A DNA stretch of 64,000 bases, taken from NCBI GenBank assembly GCA_023253175.1, contig JALRHH010000001.1, positions 172,020 through 236,019 of the forward strand. The letters run 5' to 3'. The position numbers and the translations under genes were made by a program. Every line of letters starts with the position of its first letter. Position 1 is the first letter of the stretch. Under the pieces are notes generated by a model. The model saw only the letters and a program-made list of their open reading frames with translations. It was not told the origin of the DNA and did not search any database. Shown here piece by piece: positions 4,753-53,187 of the stretch. The DNA is from Candidatus Saccharimonadia bacterium (GTDB taxonomy: Bacteria > Patescibacteriota > Saccharimonadia > Saccharimonadales > JALRHH01).

Positions 4753-8160
<3,408 letters not shown>

Positions 8161-8161
8161 T

Positions 8162-11100
8162 ATGCGACGATACTCATACGGAACTAACATTGCTGACTTT
8201 GACGCGGTCCGTTTGGCCGTTGCCAGCCCAGAAGACATCCTCGACTGGAGCTACGGTGAAGTCACCAAGCCAGAAACGATTAACTATCGTACACAGAAGC
8301 CAGAACGTGATGGTCTCTTCTGTGAGCGTATCTTTGGTCCAGTAAAGGACATCAACCCACATGATGCGAAGTACAAGGGTGTTCGTTCACGCGAAGCTGC
8401 TGTTGATAAGAACGGCGAAATCGTAACGAAGTCTATCGTACGTCGTGAGCGCATGGGTCACATTACACTTGCAAGTCCTGTTGCACACATTTGGTTCCTC
8501 CGCGGTACGCCATCAGCCGTAGGTCTACTACTCGGCATGACCGTGAAGAGCCTCGAGCGTGTTGCGTACTTTGCGAGCTACATCATCAAGAGCGTAGACG
8601 TAGATAAGCGCGACCAGATGCTTGCCGACAAGGAAGCTGAATTTGCAGCTGCTAAGGAAGCAATCAAGGCTCGCTACGAAAAAGAAGCAGAAGCTGAAGA
8701 CGCTAACATGAAGGCTTTGGCCGAAATGCAGGCTAAGGAACTTGAGGAAGTTGAAGAGAACTTCACACTTCTCAAGGAACAGCTCAACAGCCTTGTTAAG
8801 CTCAGCCTGATCTCTGAAGGTGACTACCGCGCGCTTCCAGACGACCTTGCTGACATGATTACGGTTGGTATGGGTGGAGCTGCTCTAAAGGACATGCTTG
8901 AGGAAATTGACCTCGGCCAACTCATTGCTGAATTAACCGAAGAAGCTGAAGAAGCTAAGGGTCAGCGTAAGAAGAAGCTCCTAAAGCGCCTTCGTTTGCT
9001 CGAATCTATGCACCGTGCTGGCATCAAGCCATCAAGCATGTGTGTATCAGTTCTACCGGTAATTCCTCCAGATCTTCGTCCAATGGTACAGCTTACCGGT
9101 GGTCGTTTCGCGACCTCTGATCTTAACGACCTCTACCGCCGTGTGATCAACCGTAACAACCGTCTTAAGAAGCTTATCGAGCTTAACGCCCCAGAAGTTA
9201 TCCGCCGCAACGAGCAGCGTATGCTTCAGGAAGCAGTTGATGCTTTGATTGACAACAATAACGCCCGTTCTGGCCGTGCAGTTGCTGCAACTGGTCAACG
9301 CCGCCGCCTTAAGAGCCTGTCTGACATGCTCAAGGGTAAGCAGGGTCGTTTCCGCCAGAACCTTCTTGGTAAGCGTGTTGACTACTCTGGTCGTTCAGTT
9401 ATCGTGGCTGGTCCAGAGCTCAAGATCAACGAGTGTGGTCTTCCAAAGATGATGGCTCTTGAACTTTTCAAGCCATTCGTTATTGGTTGGCTGATCGCTA
9501 ACGAGCACGCACACAACATCCGTTCTGCAACTCGTATGATCGAAATGAACGAAACTGCTGTTTGGGATGGACTCGACGAAGTGATCAAGGGCAAGTACGT
9601 ACTTCTTAACCGTGCGCCTTCACTTCACCGTCTTTCAATCCAGGCATTCCAGCCTCGTTTGATCGAAGGTAAAGCTATCCAGCTGCACCCGCTCGTTTGT
9701 AAGGGATTCAACGCTGACTTCGATGGTGACCAGATGGCTGTTCACTTGCCACTCTCTGACGAAGCTCAGGCAGAGGCACGTGAGATCATGGCTAGCAACA
9801 AGAACCTCTTGAAGCCAGCTGATGGTACGCCAATCCTCCACATCGAGCAGGACATCGTGCTTGGCTGTTACTACCTCACATACGACCGATTTGCTGGCCA
9901 AAAGGCTAAGCCATACATGAGCGTTGCAGAAGCGATCATGGCGTTTGATGCACAGGTAATTAAGCTCCAGAGCCCGATCCGTGTACCATTCCGCGGTGAA
10001 ATCCGCGAAACAACACTCGGTAAGGTTATCTTCAACGAAATGTTCCCAGAAGATTTCCCATTCCAGTCTGACGCAATGACCAAGAAGAAGCTCAACCAGG
10101 TTATGGCACTTGCATACATCAAGTACGGCCAGGAAAAGACCGCCGAGATCGCCGACGAACTCAAGGATACCGGTTTCGAATACGCAACCAAGTCTGGTCT
10201 TTCAATGGGTATGGGTGACTTCAACAAGGTTGAAGGCATGGACGACGTTATTACCGAGGGTGAAGCTAAGACTGCGGCAATTGCTGATCAGTTCGACCAA
10301 GGATTCATCACCGAAGAAGAGCGCTTCCGTCTAACTGTAGACAACTGGACCAAGGTTGAAAACAAGGTTCAGGATCTTTTGGCCGAACAGCTGAAGGACG
10401 AAGACACTGCAACTGCGATCGCGATCACTTCTGGTGCTCGTGGTAACATCTCTCAGATGAAGAACGCAGTTGGTATGCTTGGAGTACTCCAGGATGCGGC
10501 TGGTAACCTTATCGAGCTTCCAATTAAGTCAGGTTACGTAAAGGGCCTCGAGCCACTCGAATACTTCACCGGTACTCGTGGTACTCGTAAGGCACTTATC
10601 GACATCGCACTTAAGACCGCGGATGCTGGTTACCTAACTCGTCGTCTAGTCGATGTGTCTCAGGACGTATTTACAATTGATGACGACATGAGCGACCCAG
10701 GATTTGCAATGCTCCGTGAAGACGCTGAATACATCGGTGTTTCATACGGTGCACGTCTTGTCGGCCGTTACGCTGCAGAAGACGTAAAGGGCTACATCAA
10801 GAAGCACGAAGTCTTTACGCACGAAATTGCACAGAAGATCGAAGATGACGCATCTATCGATGGTATCCGTATCATGAGCGCCCTCTCTGCGACATCTGTT
10901 CGCGGTGTGCCACAGCAGTCATACGGTGTTGATCCAGCGACTGGTAACTTGGTTGCGGGACACCACCCAATTGGTGTTATTGCGGCTCAGTCCATCGGTG
11001 AGCCTGGTACGCAGCTTTCACTTGACTCTAAGCACCGTTCAGGTGGTGCACTTGCAGATGACACTGCCCAAGGGTTGAACCGTATTGAAGAGCTTTTCGA

Positions 11101-12007
11101 AGCTCGTCAACCAAAGGGTCTCGCATTCCTTACTGACATCGCAGGTACTGCAAATGTTTGGGAAGAAGGCGACCACTACGTTGTTCAGATCAACGCGAGC
11201 GACACTGATCAGGTTGAACTCGAAATTGGTAACCGCAAGGCACACATTGCTTCTGGTTCAGAAGTAGCTATTGGTGATGTACTTGCAGCTGATGAGGGTG
11301 GTGACAATCCTGTTATCTCTCCAATGGCTGGTAAGGCTGAAATCAAGGGCGACACAGTTATCATCGTGCCAACCGCTAAGAGCGTTGTTAAGTACGAAAT
11401 CCCTGGCTACAAGCAATTGTTCGTCAAGGATGGTGACAAAGTTGTTGCTGGTCAGCGTTTGACCAACGGTTCTATCAACCTCCAGGACCTTATGGCCCTC
11501 CAGGGTGTTGAGCCAACTCAGCGCTACATCATGAACGAAATCCTTCGTATGTTCGCATCACAGGGTCAGGACGTGGCTGCTAAGCACCTTGAAATCATCG
11601 TGCGCCAGATGTTCAGCCGTGTTCAGATCGAAGATGCTGGTGACAGCGAATTCGTTACTGGTGACGTAGTATCTAAGCTTGCTGCTGTTGAAGCTAACGA
11701 GCGTCTTGCCGAAGAAGGCAAGCAGCCTGCTAAGTTCACCCAGCTGCTCCTTGGTATCACCAAGTCTTCACTATCAACTGACTCATTCTTGTCAGCTGCA
11801 TCATTCCAGGACACAACCCGCGTCTTGATCGCTGCTGCAACAAGTGGTAAGGTTGATAACCTCATCGGTCTTAAGGAAAACGTTATCCTTGGCCGTCGTA
11901 TCCCTGTCGGAACTGGCTACTTGCCAGACAGCGACGGCGATGGCTTCAGCGACACAGACGTTGCGTTTGCTGAAGAAGAGGTCCTCGAAGAAGGCCTCGC
12001 CGCGTAA
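8162..12007 (+). CDS. rpoC: DNA-directed RNA polymerase subunit beta'
   Basis: NADFDGDQM catalytic motif and full-length RpoC similarity. Start set to ATG 8162, 1 nt after the rpoB stop, with GGAGAGGAGG upstream. The 8135 ORF-track start lies inside rpoB. Confidence 0.97.
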   Translation: MRRYSYGTNIADFDAVRLAVASPEDILDWSYGEVTKPETINYRTQKPERDGLFCERIFGPVKDINPHDAKYKGVRSREAAVDKNGEIVTKSIVRRERMGHITLASPVAHIWFLRGTPSAVGLLLGMTVKSLERVAYFASYIIKSVDVDKRDQMLADKEAEFAAAKEAIKARYEKEAEAEDANMKALAEMQAKELEEVEENFTLLKEQLNSLVKLSLISEGDYRALPDDLADMITVGMGGAALKDMLEEIDLGQLIAELTEEAEEAKGQRKKKLLKRLRLLESMHRAGIKPSSMCVSVLPVIPPDLRPMVQLTGGRFATSDLNDLYRRVINRNNRLKKLIELNAPEVIRRNEQRMLQEAVDALIDNNNARSGRAVAATGQRRRLKSLSDMLKGKQGRFRQNLLGKRVDYSGRSVIVAGPELKINECGLPKMMALELFKPFVIGWLIANEHAHNIRSATRMIEMNETAVWDGLDEVIKGKYVLLNRAPSLHRLSIQAFQPRLIEGKAIQLHPLVCKGFNADFDGDQMAVHLPLSDEAQAEAREIMASNKNLLKPADGTPILHIEQDIVLGCYYLTYDRFAGQKAKPYMSVAEAIMAFDAQVIKLQSPIRVPFRGEIRETTLGKVIFNEMFPEDFPFQSDAMTKKKLNQVMALAYIKYGQEKTAEIADELKDTGFEYATKSGLSMGMGDFNKVEGMDDVITEGEAKTAAIADQFDQGFITEEERFRLTVDNWTKVENKVQDLLAEQLKDEDTATAIAITSGARGNISQMKNAVGMLGVLQDAAGNLIELPIKSGYVKGLEPLEYFTGTRGTRKALIDIALKTADAGYLTRRLVDVSQDVFTIDDDMSDPGFAMLREDAEYIGVSYGARLVGRYAAEDVKGYIKKHEVFTHEIAQKIEDDASIDGIRIMSALSATSVRGVPQQSYGVDPATGNLVAGHHPIGVIAAQSIGEPGTQLSLDSKHRSGGALADDTAQGLNRIEELFEARQPKGLAFLTDIAGTANVWEEGDHYVVQINASDTDQVELEIGNRKAHIASGSEVAIGDVLAADEGGDNPVISPMAGKAEIKGDTVIIVPTAKSVVKYEIPGYKQLFVKDGDKVVAGQRLTNGSINLQDLMALQGVEPTQRYIMNEILRMFASQGQDVAAKHLEIIVRQMFSRVQIEDAGDSEFVTGDVVSKLAAVEANERLAEEGKQPAKFTQLLLGITKSSLSTDSFLSAASFQDTTRVLIAAATSGKVDNLIGLKENVILGRRIPVGTGYLPDSDGDGFSDTDVAFAEEEVLEEGLAA

Positions 12008-12030: not shown

Positions 12031-12066
12031 AAAACCCGCTTCATAACAGAGGCGGGTTTTGTTTGT
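12031..12066 (+). terminator. Intrinsic terminator after rpoC
   Basis: AAAACCCGC (12031-39) / GCGGGTTTT (12052-60) stem, then a T-rich tract. Confidence 0.7.
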
Positions 12067-12118
12067 GTTGTTAGGGCATAGCATGGCATTAATTGACATA
12101 GTATGGTATAATATAAGG

Positions 12119-13162
12119 ATGAAATCTCTACAAGAATCACTTGAGATTGCACAAAATGACGCAGGCTATCTGCTGGTCGCTGATTTACTTGATTCAGAAC
12201 GTAACATACCAATGCGCGCAACAAGCCATACCGACCTATGGCCGGGTGATCGATGGGCAGAGGCCTACCTCGCAATTGATGAGCCACAAATCGCAGAAAG
12301 TGTCATGAGGACGGCCGTACGTAGTATCCGTCCAGATGGTTCTGTACCTCATCTTATGCAAGGAAGTCATATTCGCGGTGGTATTGAGACACGGTGGATC
12401 GATCGACAGATATATCGCCTTCAGGGCAACGGTGCGCTAAAACTTCCTAACGGCGAATGGGTTACAAAAGGTTACGGCATGCCGACACTTGCTCTTGGTG
12501 CGTTAGCTCTTGCGGAACGCGGACTAAGCTACCCGAGCCCAGAAATACTGCATAATTCGATTACGGCACTATACGAGGCGCGTGCCAATGACCAAGGTCT
12601 GATCGTGGCCCGTAAGGTAGATGAGCTTACGAATAGTTCCGGAAAGCTATCTAACAAGTTGCACGAAGAGGGTAAGGTGATTGATCCTGCAGTAAATGCA
12701 CTTGCTGCACTGAATTTTGATGCCCTAAAAACACTTGATCCCACGGCCCCAAATATTAGTACGGCAGACAGTACACGCCGAAGCCTCTTGGATAGTCTGG
12801 ATACTATACGAAACTACCGCCCATTAGAAGGCGAAGAAGTGCTTGCAATTGCACGGCTTGGATACGAGCTTACCGAGGAAGAGCTAGAGGGCGTATGCGC
12901 TTCGCCTGAAGGCATTGAGCACCCAGAGCGTACTCATTTAACCATGGCGGAGTGCCTTGAGATTGCTCGTCTTACTCCTGAATCAGAAGCTTCAAAGTCA
13001 TACCTACAGAGGATCTTGCCAAAGATAGCGGCACTTGGTGCGGCGGGTATAACACGATTTGAAGGTGCGCAGCCTGGGTCTAATGCTGCGGCGAATAAAT
13101 ACGGTCGCAAGCAAATTTGGCTCCCGACTGCAGCTGAGCTTGTTCAGATCAAAAGCATCTAG
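12119..13162 (+). CDS. Hypothetical protein (348 aa from ATG 12119); weak resemblance to (alpha/alpha)6-barrel glycosidase-like proteins
   Basis: Long ORF. Perfect extended -10 TGgTATAAT (12104-12) lies 6 nt before ATG 12119. Functional call is low confidence (the DLWPGDRW...PDGS.PH segment is only suggestive). Confidence 0.5.
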   Translation: MKSLQESLEIAQNDAGYLLVADLLDSERNIPMRATSHTDLWPGDRWAEAYLAIDEPQIAESVMRTAVRSIRPDGSVPHLMQGSHIRGGIETRWIDRQIYRLQGNGALKLPNGEWVTKGYGMPTLALGALALAERGLSYPSPEILHNSITALYEARANDQGLIVARKVDELTNSSGKLSNKLHEEGKVIDPAVNALAALNFDALKTLDPTAPNISTADSTRRSLLDSLDTIRNYRPLEGEEVLAIARLGYELTEEELEGVCASPEGIEHPERTHLTMAECLEIARLTPESEASKSYLQRILPKIAALGAAGITRFEGAQPGSNAAANKYGRKQIWLPTAAELVQIKSI

Positions 13163-48807: not shown

Positions 48808-49551
48808 ATGACTACAGCAGCTTTAGAGCCATATCAGCTTATCGATCGTGATATTTTCTTGGATACAACATCTGATCAGTACGTTATGCGCGTGCGTGAT
48901 ATGGACATCACGCAAAAGCCACGTGAGAAGATGCAAAGCTTTGGTCCGGAAACACTCAGTCAGTCTGAACTGCTTGCAGTGCTACTGGGCGTCGGCACGA
49001 AGCGAGAAGAGGTAATGGCTATGTCCGATCGCATTCTCAAAGAGTATGGAGAGCGAGCGCTACTGCACGAAAAGAACCCAAATCGCCTGAGCGAGACGCT
49101 ACAAATTCCGTTTGGTAAAGCCTGTCAGATTATTGCAGCACTGGAGCTAGGGCGTCGTTTCTACGAGAAGCGAAGTGGCAAGCCAAGAGTCGTACGTACG
49201 CCCGAACAAGCCTTTGAGTACTTCAAGAACATGGCAGACCTTCAGAAAGAGCAGTTACGAGGTCTATATCTCAATAGCCGATTCCAGGTTATTCGTGAAG
49301 AAGTGATTTCTACCGGTAGTCTTACTGCAAGTATCATTCATCCAAGAGAAGTATTCCAGCCAGCAATTGAGCACGGTGCGGCGGCGATTATTATCGCACA
49401 CAACCATCCTTCGGGAAGCGTTCGCCCAACCTCATCAGATAACCTTGTGACGCAGCAGCTTATAAACGCGAGTGAAATACTTGGCATAGATTTGCTTGAC
49501 CATATTATAATTTCAGGTAATCACTACAAAAGCATTATTGGGGGAGAATAA
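48808..49551 (+). CDS. radC: RadC-family (UPF0758) JAB/MPN-domain protein
   Basis: N-terminal HhH-like LS..ELLA.LLG.G; HNHPSG JAMM motif. TGtTATAGT lies 6 nt before the ATG. Confidence 0.88.
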   Translation: MTTAALEPYQLIDRDIFLDTTSDQYVMRVRDMDITQKPREKMQSFGPETLSQSELLAVLLGVGTKREEVMAMSDRILKEYGERALLHEKNPNRLSETLQIPFGKACQIIAALELGRRFYEKRSGKPRVVRTPEQAFEYFKNMADLQKEQLRGLYLNSRFQVIREEVISTGSLTASIIHPREVFQPAIEHGAAAIIIAHNHPSGSVRPTSSDNLVTQQLINASEILGIDLLDHIIISGNHYKSIIGGE

Positions 49552-49553
49552 AT

Positions 49554-49820
49554 ATGTCGACATACACAATGCATTATTTGACTGGACTGTTCGGTCATAC
49601 GGCAACAGTTCCAAAGGTTGTACAAGATGGAATAGATGGTGAAAATATTGAGTTTCAGGCACGGGTTCAATCTGGTGATTACTTTGTAACGCTGGCAACA
49701 GAGATAGATAAGGTGGTCAACCTCCTGAGGCAAGCAGACATGCTTGAGGCCGAAGTACTTGAAACACACGTGAACGAGCTACTCTACATAGATAAACACT
49801 ACAAGATTATTAAGAAATAG
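49554..49820 (+). CDS. Hypothetical protein (88 aa)
   Basis: ATG lies 2 nt after the radC stop. No recognisable domain. Confidence 0.4.
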   Translation: MSTYTMHYLTGLFGHTATVPKVVQDGIDGENIEFQARVQSGDYFVTLATEIDKVVNLLRQADMLEAEVLETHVNELLYIDKHYKIIKK

Positions 49821-49837
49821 CCACTTCTCGAATATTA

Positions 49838-49860
49838 TTGGTGCAGGGAGAGGGATTCGA
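49838..49860 (-). repeat. 23-nt perfect copy of the 3' end of tRNA-Tyr (T-loop through CCA plus 1 nt)
   Basis: TTGGTGCAGGGAGAGGGATTCGA is identical to 50023-50045. No matching 5' acceptor strand upstream, so this is not a tRNA. Confidence 0.9.
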
Positions 49861-50023
49861 GTCGCATCCTGCGACCCTGTAACTACATCTATGAAAACAA
49901 GTTTTCATGAGTAGACTGCCTTGAAAAGTGCCACTGGCACTTTTCACCCCAAAGGCTTCCATCGCGTGTTCAATTCTTATTCCGTACCAAACAAAAAGCC
50001 CACCTGATGGTGGGGCTTTTGTT

Positions 50024-50108
50024 TGGTGCAGGGAGAGGGATTCGAACCCCCGAAGGCGTAGCCATCTGATTTACAGTCAGACCTCGTTGACCGCTTGAGT
50101 ATCCCTGC
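50024..50108 (-). tRNA. tRNA-Tyr (anticodon GTA), type II with long variable arm, CCA encoded
   Basis: Hand-folded. Acceptor GCAGGGA/TCCCTGC, anticodon stem TCTGA/TCAGA with loop CTGTAAA, variable arm with GGC/GCC stem, T-arm GGGGG-TTCGAAT-CCCTC, ACCA end. 85 nt. Confidence 0.9.
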
Positions 50109-50200
50109 GCATCAGCTACCACTCCTAGTAGCTGTAGAAACACCTCCCTGGACTACATCCCGGGATGATTGTTTTAGCATTCTCGCTGTACGCTAAAACA

Positions 50201-50221
50201 TTTGGAGCCACCTGTCGGGTT
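50201..50221 (-). repeat. 21-nt perfect copy of the 3' end of tRNA-Thr(TGT)
   Basis: TTTGGAGCCACCTGTCGGGTT is identical to 50325-50345. On the minus strand this reads AACCCGACAGGTGGCTCCAAA. Confidence 0.9.
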
Positions 50222-50326
50222 ACTCTGTATAAACTACATTCATGCTCGGAATAAATTCCTGTGCGTGACTTTGTTTATCGAACCGCAGCTTGCGCTGTGT
50301 TCGGTTCTCACCCGCCATTTGGCTTT

Positions 50327-50403
50327 TGGAGCCACCTGTCGGGTTCGAACCGACGACCCTCGGTTTACAAAACCGATGCTCTGACCAGCTGAGCTAAGGT
50401 GGC
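50327..50403 (-). tRNA. tRNA-Thr (anticodon TGT), CCA encoded
   Basis: Hand-folded. Acceptor GCCACCT/AGGTGGC, D-arm GCTC..GAGC, anticodon stem TCGGT/ACCGA with loop TTTGTAA, T-arm GTCGG-TTCGAAC-CCGAC. 77 nt. Confidence 0.9.
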
Positions 50404-50472
50404 ACGTTATATAACTACTAAAGTACCGACAAAGTGTACCAAAAACAATGCACTCATTCAACACTTATAGTA

Positions 50473-50748
50473 TTAATTCGTACGCTCCAAAATAGTAACT
50501 TCTACAAGATCACCGTCATCTTTATTGATTGCATTACGAACCTCGGCTTTTACTGGGAGCATATGTGTGCCATCACCCAACGCCATAAAGGAGCTTTCTA
50601 TAGGATACCCATTAATAGTGCCCTTTATTTTGACGAGCCCACGTGTACCAAAAAAATCCGCCGAACCGGGCATAGACACGGTTGTCCATGCGCCTTTCGC
50701 GGTACCTTTGGTTAACTTTGCTTTAAAAGTGACTGGGAGTTGGCTCAT
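50473..50748 (-). CDS. DUF1905-family small protein (91 aa)
   Basis: F.A.L.......W..V.MP......FG.RG.V.V.GTING......S.M..GDG.H.LPV....R........GD.V.V pattern typical of DUF1905. Confidence 0.6.
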   Translation of the reverse strand: MSQLPVTFKAKLTKGTAKGAWTTVSMPGSADFFGTRGLVKIKGTINGYPIESSFMALGDGTHMLPVKAEVRNAINKDDGDLVEVTILERTN

Positions 50749-50808
50749 AGTAACCTCGCTTTCGGATTGTACTCTTATGGTAACATGCTTGGCATTATCT
50801 CTGTTATT

Positions 50809-50817
50809 TGGTACAAT
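50809..50817 (+). promoter_or_regulatory. Extended -10 element upstream of tRNA-Thr(GGT)
   Basis: TGgTACAAT, 24 nt before the tRNA 5' end. Confidence 0.4.
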
Positions 50818-50841
50818 CTACCGGTACTTTTGTCATAAAGT

Positions 50842-50916
<75 letters not shown>

Positions 50917-50977
50917 GTTGAAATTATTAGCGTAATCTGTTAAGATTATTTGGATATCATCATAAAAGGTAGGAATA

Positions 50978-51184
50978 ATGGCTAAAAAAGGCGACAAGCG
51001 AAAGCTAGTAGGATTGGTTTCTGAAGAAAGTGGTGCACGTCACTACTACACCAAAAAGAACACCATGAATACTCCAGAGAAGCTAGAACTTCGTAAATAC
51101 GACCCAATTCTTCGCAAGCACGTACTATACGTTGAGACAAAGAAGAGCCTCGGACGAAACGAAGTTAAGGCACGCAAGAAATAG
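50978..51184 (+). CDS. rpmG: 50S ribosomal protein L33, Cys-less (C-) form
   Basis: MAKKGDKRKLVGLVSEESGARHYYTKKNTMNTPEKLELRKYDPILRKHVLY.ETK. This is the L33 pattern with all four Zn-ribbon Cys replaced. Confidence 0.85.
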   Translation: MAKKGDKRKLVGLVSEESGARHYYTKKNTMNTPEKLELRKYDPILRKHVLYVETKKSLGRNEVKARKK

Positions 51185-51202
51185 CACTTTTGGTGCAAGA
51201 AG

Positions 51203-51229
51203 AATCCCGGGATATCCGGGATTTTTTTA
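51203..51229. terminator. Bidirectional intrinsic terminator between rpmG and the GH15 gene
   Basis: AATCCCGG (51203-10) / CCGGGATT (51216-23), T-run after it and A-rich tract before it. Confidence 0.7.
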
Positions 51230-51252
51230 TTTGATGTAGCAAGAACTGAGTG

Positions 51253-53187
51253 CTAGCCCAGCTTCATAACATCCAGGATTGTATTGGCAAGTTCTGCATG
51301 ACTCCATACAAGTGGGGTAACCGATAGTGGCGCCCCAGTTTCAGGGTGAACCTGCTCTGGGAGTACTCCGCTGGGCAGACTCTTCTGAATTGACCAGTTG
51401 ATCAGTTCACGGCCTTTGTCTTGTTGGCCAGTACGGATATAGTACTGCGCAAGCCATAGTCCAGTAATAATCCATGGATTTCCCTGATACGCTGGTTCTG
51501 ATTTAAAGTAATTATCATGTTCGTATCGGGGCGATCCGCCAATCGGGCTCGAGCCAAGTAGATTCTGTTCGATTAGCCGTACGGTCTGGTCAAGCCACCC
51601 GTTGCTTGTGGAGTAACCAAACATCATAACCCCGTAAAATGAAGATAAATCCAGAGTGTTATCGTACTGCAGCGACTTGTCCTCTTGTAATAGGAAGCCT
51701 TTACGGTATGCTTGCCGTTCAGGATCAAAGAATGCACCGGCGCTTGCTAGTAGGCTCTCTGCCGCCCTTTGCCACTTATCGGCATCATCTGGGTGCTCGA
51801 ACTGCTTTGCAAGGTCGCTGGCAACTAATAATGCTTGATAGGTAAGGGCGGTAGTGTAGGTGTTAGTTAGAAACTTTTCCTCCCAAAGATCATAGCTTGC
51901 ATGCGGGAGGCCAGTTGCGTCATCAACAAAATGACTCATAAAATTAGCTGCAGGCTGCACGAATGTTAAATATAGACTTTTAACAAAATCTGAGTCCTTG
52001 CTGTATTCCATATACTCACCCAGCATATACACAACCGACGCTGTCTCATCTTCTTGGATCGGGAGTTCTTTGCGGTTTCCGTGGAGCCACGGGTGCCAGG
52101 TACTGCCGATAGCACGGTCAGGCTGATATTTATGCATGAGGTAGCCGTCTGGGGTTATGATATCGCGGCAAAATTCAAAGAAACGCTTTGGCTCCTCAGT
52201 ATACCCAAGCCTAATAAGCGGCCAGAGCGCAAACGCGCCATCTCTCGGCCAGACGTAGCTGTAATAGTCACGTCCGTAGTTGTATATAGAAGAGTCCCCG
52301 GAGGCTATGATACCTCCCCGGCGGTCGGCATGCGCCTTGATTATCATTAATGATTTTTTCAGCGGCACAACATATTCTTTGTCAACAGCGTGAATACTGT
52401 TTCCTCCAATAGCCAGCCATTCTTGCCAATACTGTCTAACGGCCTGTAGTCGAGCTGGGATTCCTTCTTTGGCAATTTCATTATGGATTTTCTCTGCGGC
52501 GTACTGAGAGTCTGCTGCCGCAATCCAGTACTCGACTTGGCCCGATGAATCAGCCTCGAGCTGTAGCGTGAACCTAATAACGGAGTCAACGCCGCCATGT
52601 TCAACTGCGCTACCTGAAAGCTCACCGTCTTCAGCGTCTCTGAAAGTACCCTCTTTACCCTCGATACCGTAGCTACCGACTGCATATTGATCAAAAGGTG
52701 TGCCATCCATTTGCCGCCCATGTATCAGAAGGGAGCAGCGCCCTTTGTAATCCAGAATATAGTTATCGTCTGGCACAAATAGCGCGGTGTCTGCCCGGCC
52801 GGCCCTAGAAATCTCAAAGACTTGGTGCATGAAGATTCTAATTTCACGAGCTTCACCTCGGATATTCTTTACATCCACTAACCTACAAAATAGGTTTAAT
52901 TCATTGTCTACGAAATCCGTAAAAGTTAATTCAATAGCCAGTTTTTCTGAATACATTGAAATATGGCTAACCAATGCATCTGACTCGAAGTCTACGCTGA
53001 TGTTCCAACTATCGTCGTCTACCCAAGAAAACGTACCGTCTACCCAAACACCGACTTTGTGGTGAACGCTCCTGGCTGTCGTTAAGTTATCAAGTCCAAC
53101 ATACGGGTAATAAAAATCATGCACAAGACCGTGTTCATTAAGACCCACCATAAGCTTACCGTTACTAAGAACTACGGGGCGTGCCAT
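51253..53187 (-). CDS. Glycoside hydrolase family 15 (glucoamylase / glucodextranase-like)
   Basis: 644 aa. SIYNYGRDYYSYVWPRDGAF, (alpha/alpha)6 catalytic-domain blocks and LPEQV....G...S..PL.WSHA. Confidence 0.85.
   Translation of the reverse strand: MARPVVLSNGKLMVGLNEHGLVHDFYYPYVGLDNLTTARSVHHKVGVWVDGTFSWVDDDSWNISVDFESDALVSHISMYSEKLAIELTFTDFVDNELNLFCRLVDVKNIRGEAREIRIFMHQVFEISRAGRADTALFVPDDNYILDYKGRCSLLIHGRQMDGTPFDQYAVGSYGIEGKEGTFRDAEDGELSGSAVEHGGVDSVIRFTLQLEADSSGQVEYWIAAADSQYAAEKIHNEIAKEGIPARLQAVRQYWQEWLAIGGNSIHAVDKEYVVPLKKSLMIIKAHADRRGGIIASGDSSIYNYGRDYYSYVWPRDGAFALWPLIRLGYTEEPKRFFEFCRDIITPDGYLMHKYQPDRAIGSTWHPWLHGNRKELPIQEDETASVVYMLGEYMEYSKDSDFVKSLYLTFVQPAANFMSHFVDDATGLPHASYDLWEEKFLTNTYTTALTYQALLVASDLAKQFEHPDDADKWQRAAESLLASAGAFFDPERQAYRKGFLLQEDKSLQYDNTLDLSSFYGVMMFGYSTSNGWLDQTVRLIEQNLLGSSPIGGSPRYEHDNYFKSEPAYQGNPWIITGLWLAQYYIRTGQQDKGRELINWSIQKSLPSGVLPEQVHPETGAPLSVTPLVWSHAELANTILDVMKLG

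Follow-up and report, generated by a model that had tools for sequence, protein, structure and literature searches.

The window analyzed here, a 64-kb stretch of DNA from a Candidatus Saccharimonadia bacterium, carries a gene for tRNA-Thr(UGU) and a gene for tRNA-Tyr(GUA), each followed by a structured unit that ends in a perfect copy of the 3′ end of its own tRNA. We propose, with a probability of roughly 60%, that these two units are tRNA-linked repeats (TLRs), that is, structured modules that arose from a tandem duplicate of the upstream tRNA, are co-transcribed with it and carry a tRNA-like end that directs their processing. The proposal is carried by the position of the units and their repeats, by their tRNA ancestry and conserved hairpins, and by a family of such units found at eight isoacceptors. 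The locus is read on the minus strand, in the order Thr to Tyr, and L-numbers (e.g. L189, L208) are labels of compared loci on other contigs.

Two units that each end in a copy of the 3′ end of their own tRNA

Both tRNA calls made in the initial annotation were confirmed by ARAGORN and Rfam, as were the perfect 21-nt and 23-nt repeats of their 3′ ends, which lie 103 and 162 nt downstream of the respective genes. The portion of each repeat inside the tRNA proper is 19 nt for Thr and 22 nt for Tyr. No third copy of either repeat was found in the window with up to three mismatches, and no shuffle out of 100 gave two matches to a repeat. The arrangement is 100% identical in contigs of at least nine independent assemblies, over up to 1.9–2 kb within 49000–51300, which excludes the assembly artifact that had been raised as a possible objection. 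With regard to excision or integration activity, same-strain contigs are all identical and empty sites are seen between species only. Some same-strain contigs end inside the units, and not inside the tRNAs (L083/L087/L088/L091, L086/L099 and L089, at 49965–49973, 50178 and 50218). These ends may hint at population variants, and all of the sequence present is identical.

The first unit, TLR-Thr, starts 1 nt past tRNA-Thr and lies upstream of tRNA-Tyr. It is matched by model R2 at 50203–50289 (64.9 bits), and its minimum-energy fold (−40.6 kcal/mol, z −4.65) closes the two ends of the unit on each other and leaves the CCA free. In the closing helix, AGCCA (50320–50324) and GG.GGGU pair with ACCCG.CA..UGGCU, and three of the five nucleotides of the T-stem remnant held in the adjoining hairpin pair with CCGAC of the copy. 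The 56-nt insert that follows contains a conserved core, CACGCACAGGAAUUUAUUCCGAGCAUG (50241–50267), whose central hairpin covaries. Between TLR-Thr and tRNA-Tyr lies a further structured spacer that has no counterpart in the closest relatives. The stretch from tRNA-Thr to tRNA-Tyr yielded no terminator.

A first terminator is instead predicted from the sequence between tRNA-Tyr and the second unit, TLR-Tyr, where the terminator scan found a stem at 49999–50014 with a T-run and the extended hairpin takes in the end of the tRNA itself. This terminator looks bidirectional. TLR-Tyr is matched by model R1 at 49839–49963 (143.6 bits). In its fold (z −2.26), GUACGGA (49981–49987) makes six of the seven acceptor pairs of tRNA-Tyr and the ACCA is again free. 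Two hairpins that had been singled out earlier in this unit are present, one as inverted repeat I7 at 49922–49946 and the other at 49891–49908. A comparison of the window with L208 shows all 22 nt of the tail conserved (22/22) and only 74% identity in the body of the unit, an outcome with a chance probability of about 0.001 (0.74^22). The Tyr-type unit of L208 (1–240) is complete, and its 25-nt tail is perfect. It has no tRNA-Tyr gene upstream on its contig, where a GCACCA remnant is followed by the usual terminator-like hairpin.

The initial annotation had held that the distal copies lack a matching 5′ acceptor strand and are therefore not tRNA genes. The second half of this statement stands: the window units are called neither by ARAGORN nor by the Rfam tRNA model, even at E ≤ 10, and they have no anticodon arm and thus not the D, anticodon and intact T arms of a functional tRNA. 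The first half does not stand, as a degenerate 5′ strand pairs with the copy in both units. Transfer-messenger RNA (tmRNA), signal recognition particle RNA, a group I intron and a functional tRNA with a T-loop intron were also considered as identities and dropped, given that no model matches and that the anticodon arm is missing.

The two spacers had further been described as related, which their pairwise local alignment does not bear out (172 of 500 shuffles reach its score). A block said to be shared between them, ACTACAT, reads ATGTAGT on the tRNA strand and is not enriched window-wide, with nine occurrences against 8.4 expected, although three of the nine do cluster within 360 nt at the locus, the third in one of the hairpins of the spacer upstream of tRNA-Tyr. 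The other block (GAAC-AC-GCG on the minus strand) falls in a segment that we read as the complement of the T-loop region. Judged on their sequences, the two units are related in architecture, not in sequence, and are of two distinct sequence types (models R1 and R2).

Table 1. Coordinates of the tRNA genes, the two units and their parts in the window.
Feature	Position	Strand	Basis
tRNA-Thr(UGU), parent of first unit	50327..50403	−	ARAGORN; Rfam tRNA model, 70.6 bits
TLR-Thr, 124-nt unit between tRNA-Thr and tRNA-Tyr, ends at CCA of copy	50203..50326	−	sequence; fold
Closing-helix 5′ strand (AGCCA..GGCGGGU), then linker GAGAAC	50304..50324	−	fold pairing
Hairpin GAACCG...CGGUUCGA; 3′ strand holds part of T-stem 5′ strand and TTCGA	50278..50307	−	sequence, fold
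56-nt insert splitting T-loop at about 57/58	50222..50277	−	alignments A3, A4 with L060, L027, L166
Perfect copy of tRNA-Thr 3′ end (A58 to CCA plus 2 nt)	50201..50221	−	21 nt equal to 50325–50345
92-nt spacer with three hairpins, TLR-Thr to tRNA-Tyr	50109..50200	−	fold −35.9 kcal/mol, z −4.63
tRNA-Tyr(GUA), parent of second unit	50024..50108	−	ARAGORN and Rfam
Extended intrinsic-terminator hairpin (predicted), takes in ACCA of tRNA and downstream UGGU	49986..50027	−	terminator scan; inverted repeat I6
TLR-Tyr, 149-nt unit ending at CCA of copy	49839..49987	−	R1 match; fold
GAUGGAAGCCUUUGGGGUG, remnant of tRNA-Tyr variable arm and T-stem 5′ strand	49945..49963	−	alignment to L189 segment
Tyr-type insert with three hairpins: H1 49923–49945, H2 49891–49908, H3 49861–49875	49861..49945	−	covariation, 6 sequences
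Perfect copy of tRNA-Tyr 3′ end (T-loop U55 to CCA plus 1 nt)	49838..49860	−	23 nt equal to 50023–50045
tRNA-Thr(GGU), third tRNA	50842..50916	+	ARAGORN and Rfam

Recurrence among relatives and probable origin from tRNAs

Scanning metagenome contigs for the tRNA-Tyr tail yielded at least 120 loci. A Thr(UGU)–Tyr(GUA) cluster is common to most of the 120 listed, often together with Thr(GGU). At the loci with tRNAs most like those of the window, Thr and Tyr lie only 3–22 nt apart, there are no copies, and nothing but a terminator follows Tyr. The initial annotation had predicted such empty sites in relatives, and on this sequence comparison the 218-nt Thr–Tyr gap and 186-nt Tyr tail of the window are derived. 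A second exact copy of the 22-mer occurs at one locus among the at least 120 listed, 137 nt from the first. Between the Thr and Tyr genes of three loci (L177, L168 and L218) stands another conserved element, about 90 nt long and of the form AGGGAAAAGAGCAGCCCG-hairpin-CCGGCGCGATGAGAAAAACC..GGTTTGTCTCA, which has no copy of a tRNA tail and does not occur in the window.

Copies of tRNA 3′ ends are not confined to Thr and Tyr. We took a census of all tRNAs in the compared loci, leaving out same-strain contigs and counting matches of at least 12 nt to a tRNA's own 3′ end, on the same strand and no more than 500 nt downstream. Fifteen of 297 tRNAs (about 5%) carry such a copy, as compared with two of 297 on the opposite strand, none of 297 when the 5′ end was looked for instead and two of 305 upstream. 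Eight isoacceptors are represented: Tyr, Thr-UGU, Thr-GGU, Arg-GCG, Ser-CGA, Ser-GGA, Met and Trp. In every case the copy corresponds to its own tRNA, and it starts 18–24 nt from the 3′-terminal A, inside the T-loop; 18–19 nt is the common length and others reach 24 nt or more. Tandem units occur in L013, L102, L218 and L166, and a second terminator follows many units. In L013 (7891–8648), a tRNA-Arg(GCG) with two tandem units faces a tRNA-Ser(CGA) with one, and the last copies of the two are separated only by a single shared bidirectional terminator hairpin, a convergence that fits transcription in the direction of the tRNAs. At least four sequence types, A to D, can be told apart, and besides them a short hairpin type, E. 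The insert of the Tyr type (A) lies at T-loop position 54/55 and not at 57/58.

The interior of the units points to tRNAs as well. In the Thr-type units (Thr in the window, Ser in L060, Met in L027, Trp and Tyr in L166, Arg and Ser in L013), the 5′ strand of a T-stem and TTCG are followed by an insert of about 50–115 nt and then by (A)AUCC... as far as CCA. This is seen, for example, in L027, with GGTCAGTGGTTCG before the insert and AATCCACTC after it, and the window, with TGCGGTTCGA and AACCCGAC in the same places. Model R1 detects Tyr-type units in the window, L208, L189, L139, L140 and L166. Among these, L189 retains, immediately 5′ of its window-type element, a tRNA-like segment (4912–4966) that scores 27.2 bits with the Rfam tRNA model (E 0.0024). 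The segment shows a D arm and an anticodon arm with GUA, and the variable arm is kept in L189 too. What is left in the Tyr unit of the window is only GAUGGAAGCCUUUGGGGUG and the degenerate acceptor 5′ strand GUACGGA. From these sequences, the units appear to be remodeled duplicates of the upstream tRNA.

Covariation supports the hairpins of the Tyr type. Its 24 pairs (three hairpins and a three-pair T-stem remnant) have 95.6% of cells paired and 11 pairs with compensatory changes. No shuffle out of 500 matched the observed cells paired, two-sided changes (counted as pairs or cells) or covariation score, and slid controls gave 30–55% of cells paired. All seven G·U cells are on the tRNA-sense strand. 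In the Thr type, pairing reaches 85% of cells, and seven of 15 pairs are compensatory.

Comparison with E. coli and weighing of alternatives

The TLRs of E. coli were reportedly described by Egan and Landy in 1978 and by Rudd in 1999. E. coli has 22 such repeats at ten loci, with one to five units per locus, each closed by 18–19 nt that equal the upstream tRNA's 3′ end (Stenum et al., 2021; PMC8144298). Examples are rtT/RttR in the tyrT-tyrV operon and RrA, RrB and RrF after 5S rRNA; those in tRNA operons have no assigned function (PMC8144298). The 5S-linked TLRs sit between two terminators and arise from read-through transcripts, and both their transcription and their processing have been shown experimentally (PMC8144298). 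They bind Hfq and CsrA, RrB among them, and the repeat has been proposed to direct processing by RNase E, with RrB ending 3 nt beyond its own repeat (PMC8144298). We found no reports of TLRs outside E. coli and its relatives in the searchable literature.

The window units resemble these TLRs in several respects. In both organisms, a unit shares the strand of the tRNA gene directly upstream, and the 3′ end of the unit is identical to that of the tRNA and starts in the T-loop (18–19 nt in E. coli, 19 and 22 nt in the window). The unit may stand between two tRNA genes, as in the tyrT-tyrV spacer and for TLR-Thr, or past a first terminator, as for rrB and TLR-Tyr. The number of units is also comparable, with one per tRNA and two at the locus in the window and tandems in relatives. 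For the Thr unit the likeness extends to the internal layout of closing helix, GAGAAC/G, hairpin, insert and A58..CCA. We read the sequence of the E. coli K-12 tyrT-tyrV region, where the tyrT-tyrV spacer and three units after tyrV share one layout: GGGGAAGG(A/G)U, GAGAA(C/G), a hairpin ending AAGGUUCGA (GGUUCGA), an insert of about 65 nt and AAUCCUUCCCCCACCACCA (AAUCC..ACCA). The annotated RttR small RNA (sRNA) ends exactly at the CCA of the copy, and its fold closes GGGGAAGGAU on AUCCUUCCCC. TLR-Thr has its parts in the same order, namely GGCGGGU, GAGAAC, a hairpin ending GGUUCGA (CGGUUCGA), the 56-nt insert and AACCC..CCA. The differences are that the window units belong to the Saccharibacteria/Patescibacteria phylum, that at least four sequence types exist, that the Tyr type has its insert at 54/55, that copies run to at least 24 nt, and that RNAs have been studied in E. 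coli, whereas the window units are known here from their sequence. The initial annotation had offered a lineage-specific tRNA-linked RNA element as its alternative; the tRNA linkage holds, but not the restriction to one lineage, as the TLRs of E. coli share the defining feature.

The most likely history would begin with a tandem tRNA duplicate that was remodeled, losing or replacing its D and anticodon arms and taking up extra hairpins in or beside the T-loop. Its 5′ strand would pair with the retained 3′ strand of the T-stem and acceptor, giving a closed multi-hairpin RNA that ends in the discriminator and CCA. Because no terminator was seen between Thr and Tyr and the closest relatives have these genes 3–22 nt apart, TLR-Thr would be transcribed together with the Thr–Tyr unit. 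TLR-Tyr, in turn, would be made when transcription continues past the first terminator, as for the 5S-linked TLRs of E. coli. The tRNA-like end would then most likely recruit the enzymes of tRNA end maturation, and a discrete small RNA would be released. An acceptor-like helix with NCCA is the part of a tRNA that end-processing enzymes read, and tmRNA, YrlA and mascRNA, to which we draw a functional analogy only, likewise combine a non-tRNA body with such a helix and a free NCCA. They differ in that the window units match none of these families, that their split T-loop bars a tRNA elbow and that each unit copies its neighboring tRNA.

Several points weigh against this account. RtT (RF00391) gave no match in the window at E ≤ 10 or in six relatives at E ≤ 1, model R2 scores at most 2 bits on the E. 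coli rtT units of the tyrT region, and Rfam at permissive thresholds returned only tRNAs from the window and its relatives. The shared GAGAAC layout could be convergent or due to chance, and a loose GAGAAC...GGTTCG pattern, with 119 matches over all compared DNA, is too permissive as a test. Because sequence homology is undemonstrable, we file the window units in the TLR class and not in the RtT family. Compared with their own tRNAs within the window alone, the bodies of the units show no significant similarity (p 0.41 for Thr; about 0.08 for Tyr), so the ancestry claim rests on the comparative series. In L139, L140 and L189 the hairpins persist and the 3′ copy is truncated or decayed, which means that the tRNA-like end is not always maintained. 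The alignments hold six sequences each and were fitted to the models, and DNA template switching in near-perfect palindromes can also yield compensatory changes. The antisense strand folds slightly better than the sense strand in both units (−43.0 vs −40.6 kcal/mol for Thr; −47.1 vs −45.2 kcal/mol for Tyr), so fold energy leaves the strand undecided, and what favors the sense strand is only the G·U pairs and the shared terminator of L013. Transcription, processing, stability and any function are, finally, properties that we infer from sequence.

A serious rival to the TLR reading, though one that we hold to be unlikely, is the neutral persistence of debris, in which tandem tRNA duplicates decay and collect random insertions, have no RNA function, and contain palindromes that correct themselves at the DNA level. 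Units and tandem tRNA duplicates or pseudogenes do share descent from a duplicate of the adjacent tRNA, as the arms kept in L189 attest. Very uneven decay, with degenerate 5′ parts and a lost anticodon arm, would suit debris, as would the truncated or decayed copies of L139, L140 and L189, the scarcity of units among relatives (about 5% of tRNAs) and the ability of either strand to fold equally well. Unlike pseudogenes, however, the window units are unrecognizable as tRNAs, with a perfect 3′ end, an otherwise remodeled body and covarying hairpins that split the T-loop. A 3′ copy that stays perfect in both the window and L208, against a divergence of 26% in the body (p ~0.001), is hard to reconcile with neutral decay. 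So are compensatory changes in three separate hairpins with G·U tolerated on one strand only, and a layout that recurs at eight isoacceptors and in E. coli. Non-functional inserts of 125–190 nt would also be unexpected in a genome of roughly the 1-Mb class, a size inferred from related complete genomes.

The initial annotation had favored a different origin, from miniature integrase-less derivatives of a tyrosine-integrase element family. In the version weighed here, the repeats are attL/attR cores of such elements within tRNA T-loops, and the 103- and 162-nt spacers are miniature integrase-less remnants, similar to cis-mobilizable elements (CIMEs), that can be mobilized in trans. The T-loop is a classic sublocation for integrase crossover, and as at attachment (att) or CIME sites, the direct repeats start in the T-loop, run just beyond the CCA and flank an insert that is absent from relatives, most of which have ‘empty’ sites; tandem arrays resemble accretion, and one internal sequence type adjoins different tRNAs. 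The evidence nevertheless makes this origin improbable. No tyrosine recombinase was found in the window, either by searching the 60 reading frames that reach 150 aa for the box-II motif or by Pfam on 19 tested ORFs (open reading frames), and in none of the 120 related tRNA-Tyr loci listed does a second copy lie farther off than 137 nt, so no island stands between copies. In the viral contigs scanned, no phage or provirus has the repeat as attP: the Tyr repeat has no match there, the Thr repeat has a single match inside a complete phage tRNA-Thr gene, two patterns from the element cores give chance matches only, and neither model finds a unit. What lies between the repeats, inserts of only 103–162 nt with no integrase or remnant of one, is not foreign and carries remnants of the same tRNA (T-stem 5′ strand with TTCG, variable arm, acceptor 5′ strand) and conserved hairpins with compensatory changes. 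In L119, the T-stem strand CCGAC of the distal copy mismatches the 5′ T-stem strand CGGGG of the present tRNA, so tRNA and distal copy are not halves of one gene split in the T-loop. Moreover, E. coli units that share this layout carry the annotation of an sRNA whose end falls on the copy's CCA, and the 5S-linked ones are transcribed and processed. The proposal that the opposite strand is the functional one, where an RNA or DNA site would offer an 18–23-nt complement of a tRNA 3′ end as a structure like a primer-binding site or as an antisense regulator of the tRNA, seems to us the least credible of all. Retroviral primer-binding sites measure 18–19 nt, which is also the common length of the copies, the antisense folds are slightly more stable for both units, and the tRNA-Tyr terminator looks bidirectional. 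Yet the G·U pairs are confined to the tRNA-sense strand, the L013 units for Arg and Ser converge on a shared terminator as sense transcription would have it, TLR-Thr lies inside a sense transcription unit, and Pfam found no reverse transcriptase among the ORFs tested.

Genomic setting and significance

The genes around the locus are housekeeping genes. They encode a tRNA synthetase of class I (Trp/Tyr type), a pseudouridine synthase of the RluD type and a DNA polymerase III delta′-like protein, and further neighbors are a tetratricopeptide repeat (TPR) protein, RadC, a DUF1905 protein, GH15 and GH57 glycosidases and L33, the last annotated by Pfam from identical contigs. Judged on gene sizes, the stretch at 4.7–44 kb looks like an rpoBC and ribosomal-protein region. 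The closest relatives of RadC are in metagenome-assembled genomes of Candidatus Saccharibacteria, at no more than 62% identity, which places the organism in the Saccharibacteria (Patescibacteria/CPR), and radC was never found beside Thr or Tyr tRNAs in 80 related Saccharibacterial loci. Exact-protein look-ups with the DUF1905 protein, L33 and an 88-aa ORF returned only the same strain (100% identical) or contigs of relatives that end within tRNA genes. This 88-aa ORF (49554–49820, plus strand) converges on TLR-Tyr, stops 18 nt short of the copy and has no Pfam match. Another ORF without a Pfam match, of 367 aa (12059–13159, plus strand), follows a 1290-aa ORF at 8135–12004.

Synteny around the tRNA cluster is unstable (window 50748–51184; L093 1–700). 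In L093, which has an identical L33 protein, an ORF for a membrane protein replaces tRNA-Thr(GGU) and the DUF1905 gene upstream of rpmG. The divergent genes for tRNA-Thr(UGU) and tRNA-Thr(GGU) are preceded by an inverted pair, TTTGGTACA...GGTACTTT, at 50417–50443 and 50807–50833, and a similar sequence, CTGTTTTGGTACACT, stands upstream of tRNA-Thr(UGU) in L202, L204, L119, L151 and L177. It is probably a conserved promoter of the extended −10 type for tRNA genes in this lineage.

A broader proposal is that TLRs are a widespread class of RNA made from a refolded tRNA top half, ancient or repeatedly re-invented, that extends beyond enterobacteria. Such RNAs would originate when a duplicated tRNA is split in the T-loop at about 57/58 and gains hairpins and a 5′ strand that closes on the tail from A58 to CCA. 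The layout shared by rtT and the Thr unit is a hint in this direction, and its GAGAAC-hairpin part is also found in the Ser and Arg units of relatives. We regard this extension as speculative and rather doubtful. If true, it would mean a common function tied to tRNA end-processing or to the output of tRNA operons, or else a common generative mechanism by which 18–24 nt of a tRNA 3′ end are copied.

On the reading preferred here, the units of the window are a further case, new and remote in phylogeny, of a kind of element that is known but little understood. The literature on TLRs of E. coli goes back to 1978, and their defining feature is now found in a Patescibacterium with a reduced genome. 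The presence of a duplicated tRNA 3′ end near a tRNA gene is not automatically the scar of an integration event. Recurrence at eight isoacceptors, with covarying hairpins, argues for a layout under selection or for a general mechanism that generates it, and with the Saccharibacterial units the question of what TLR RNAs do can be put to a second system that is very distant from E. coli.

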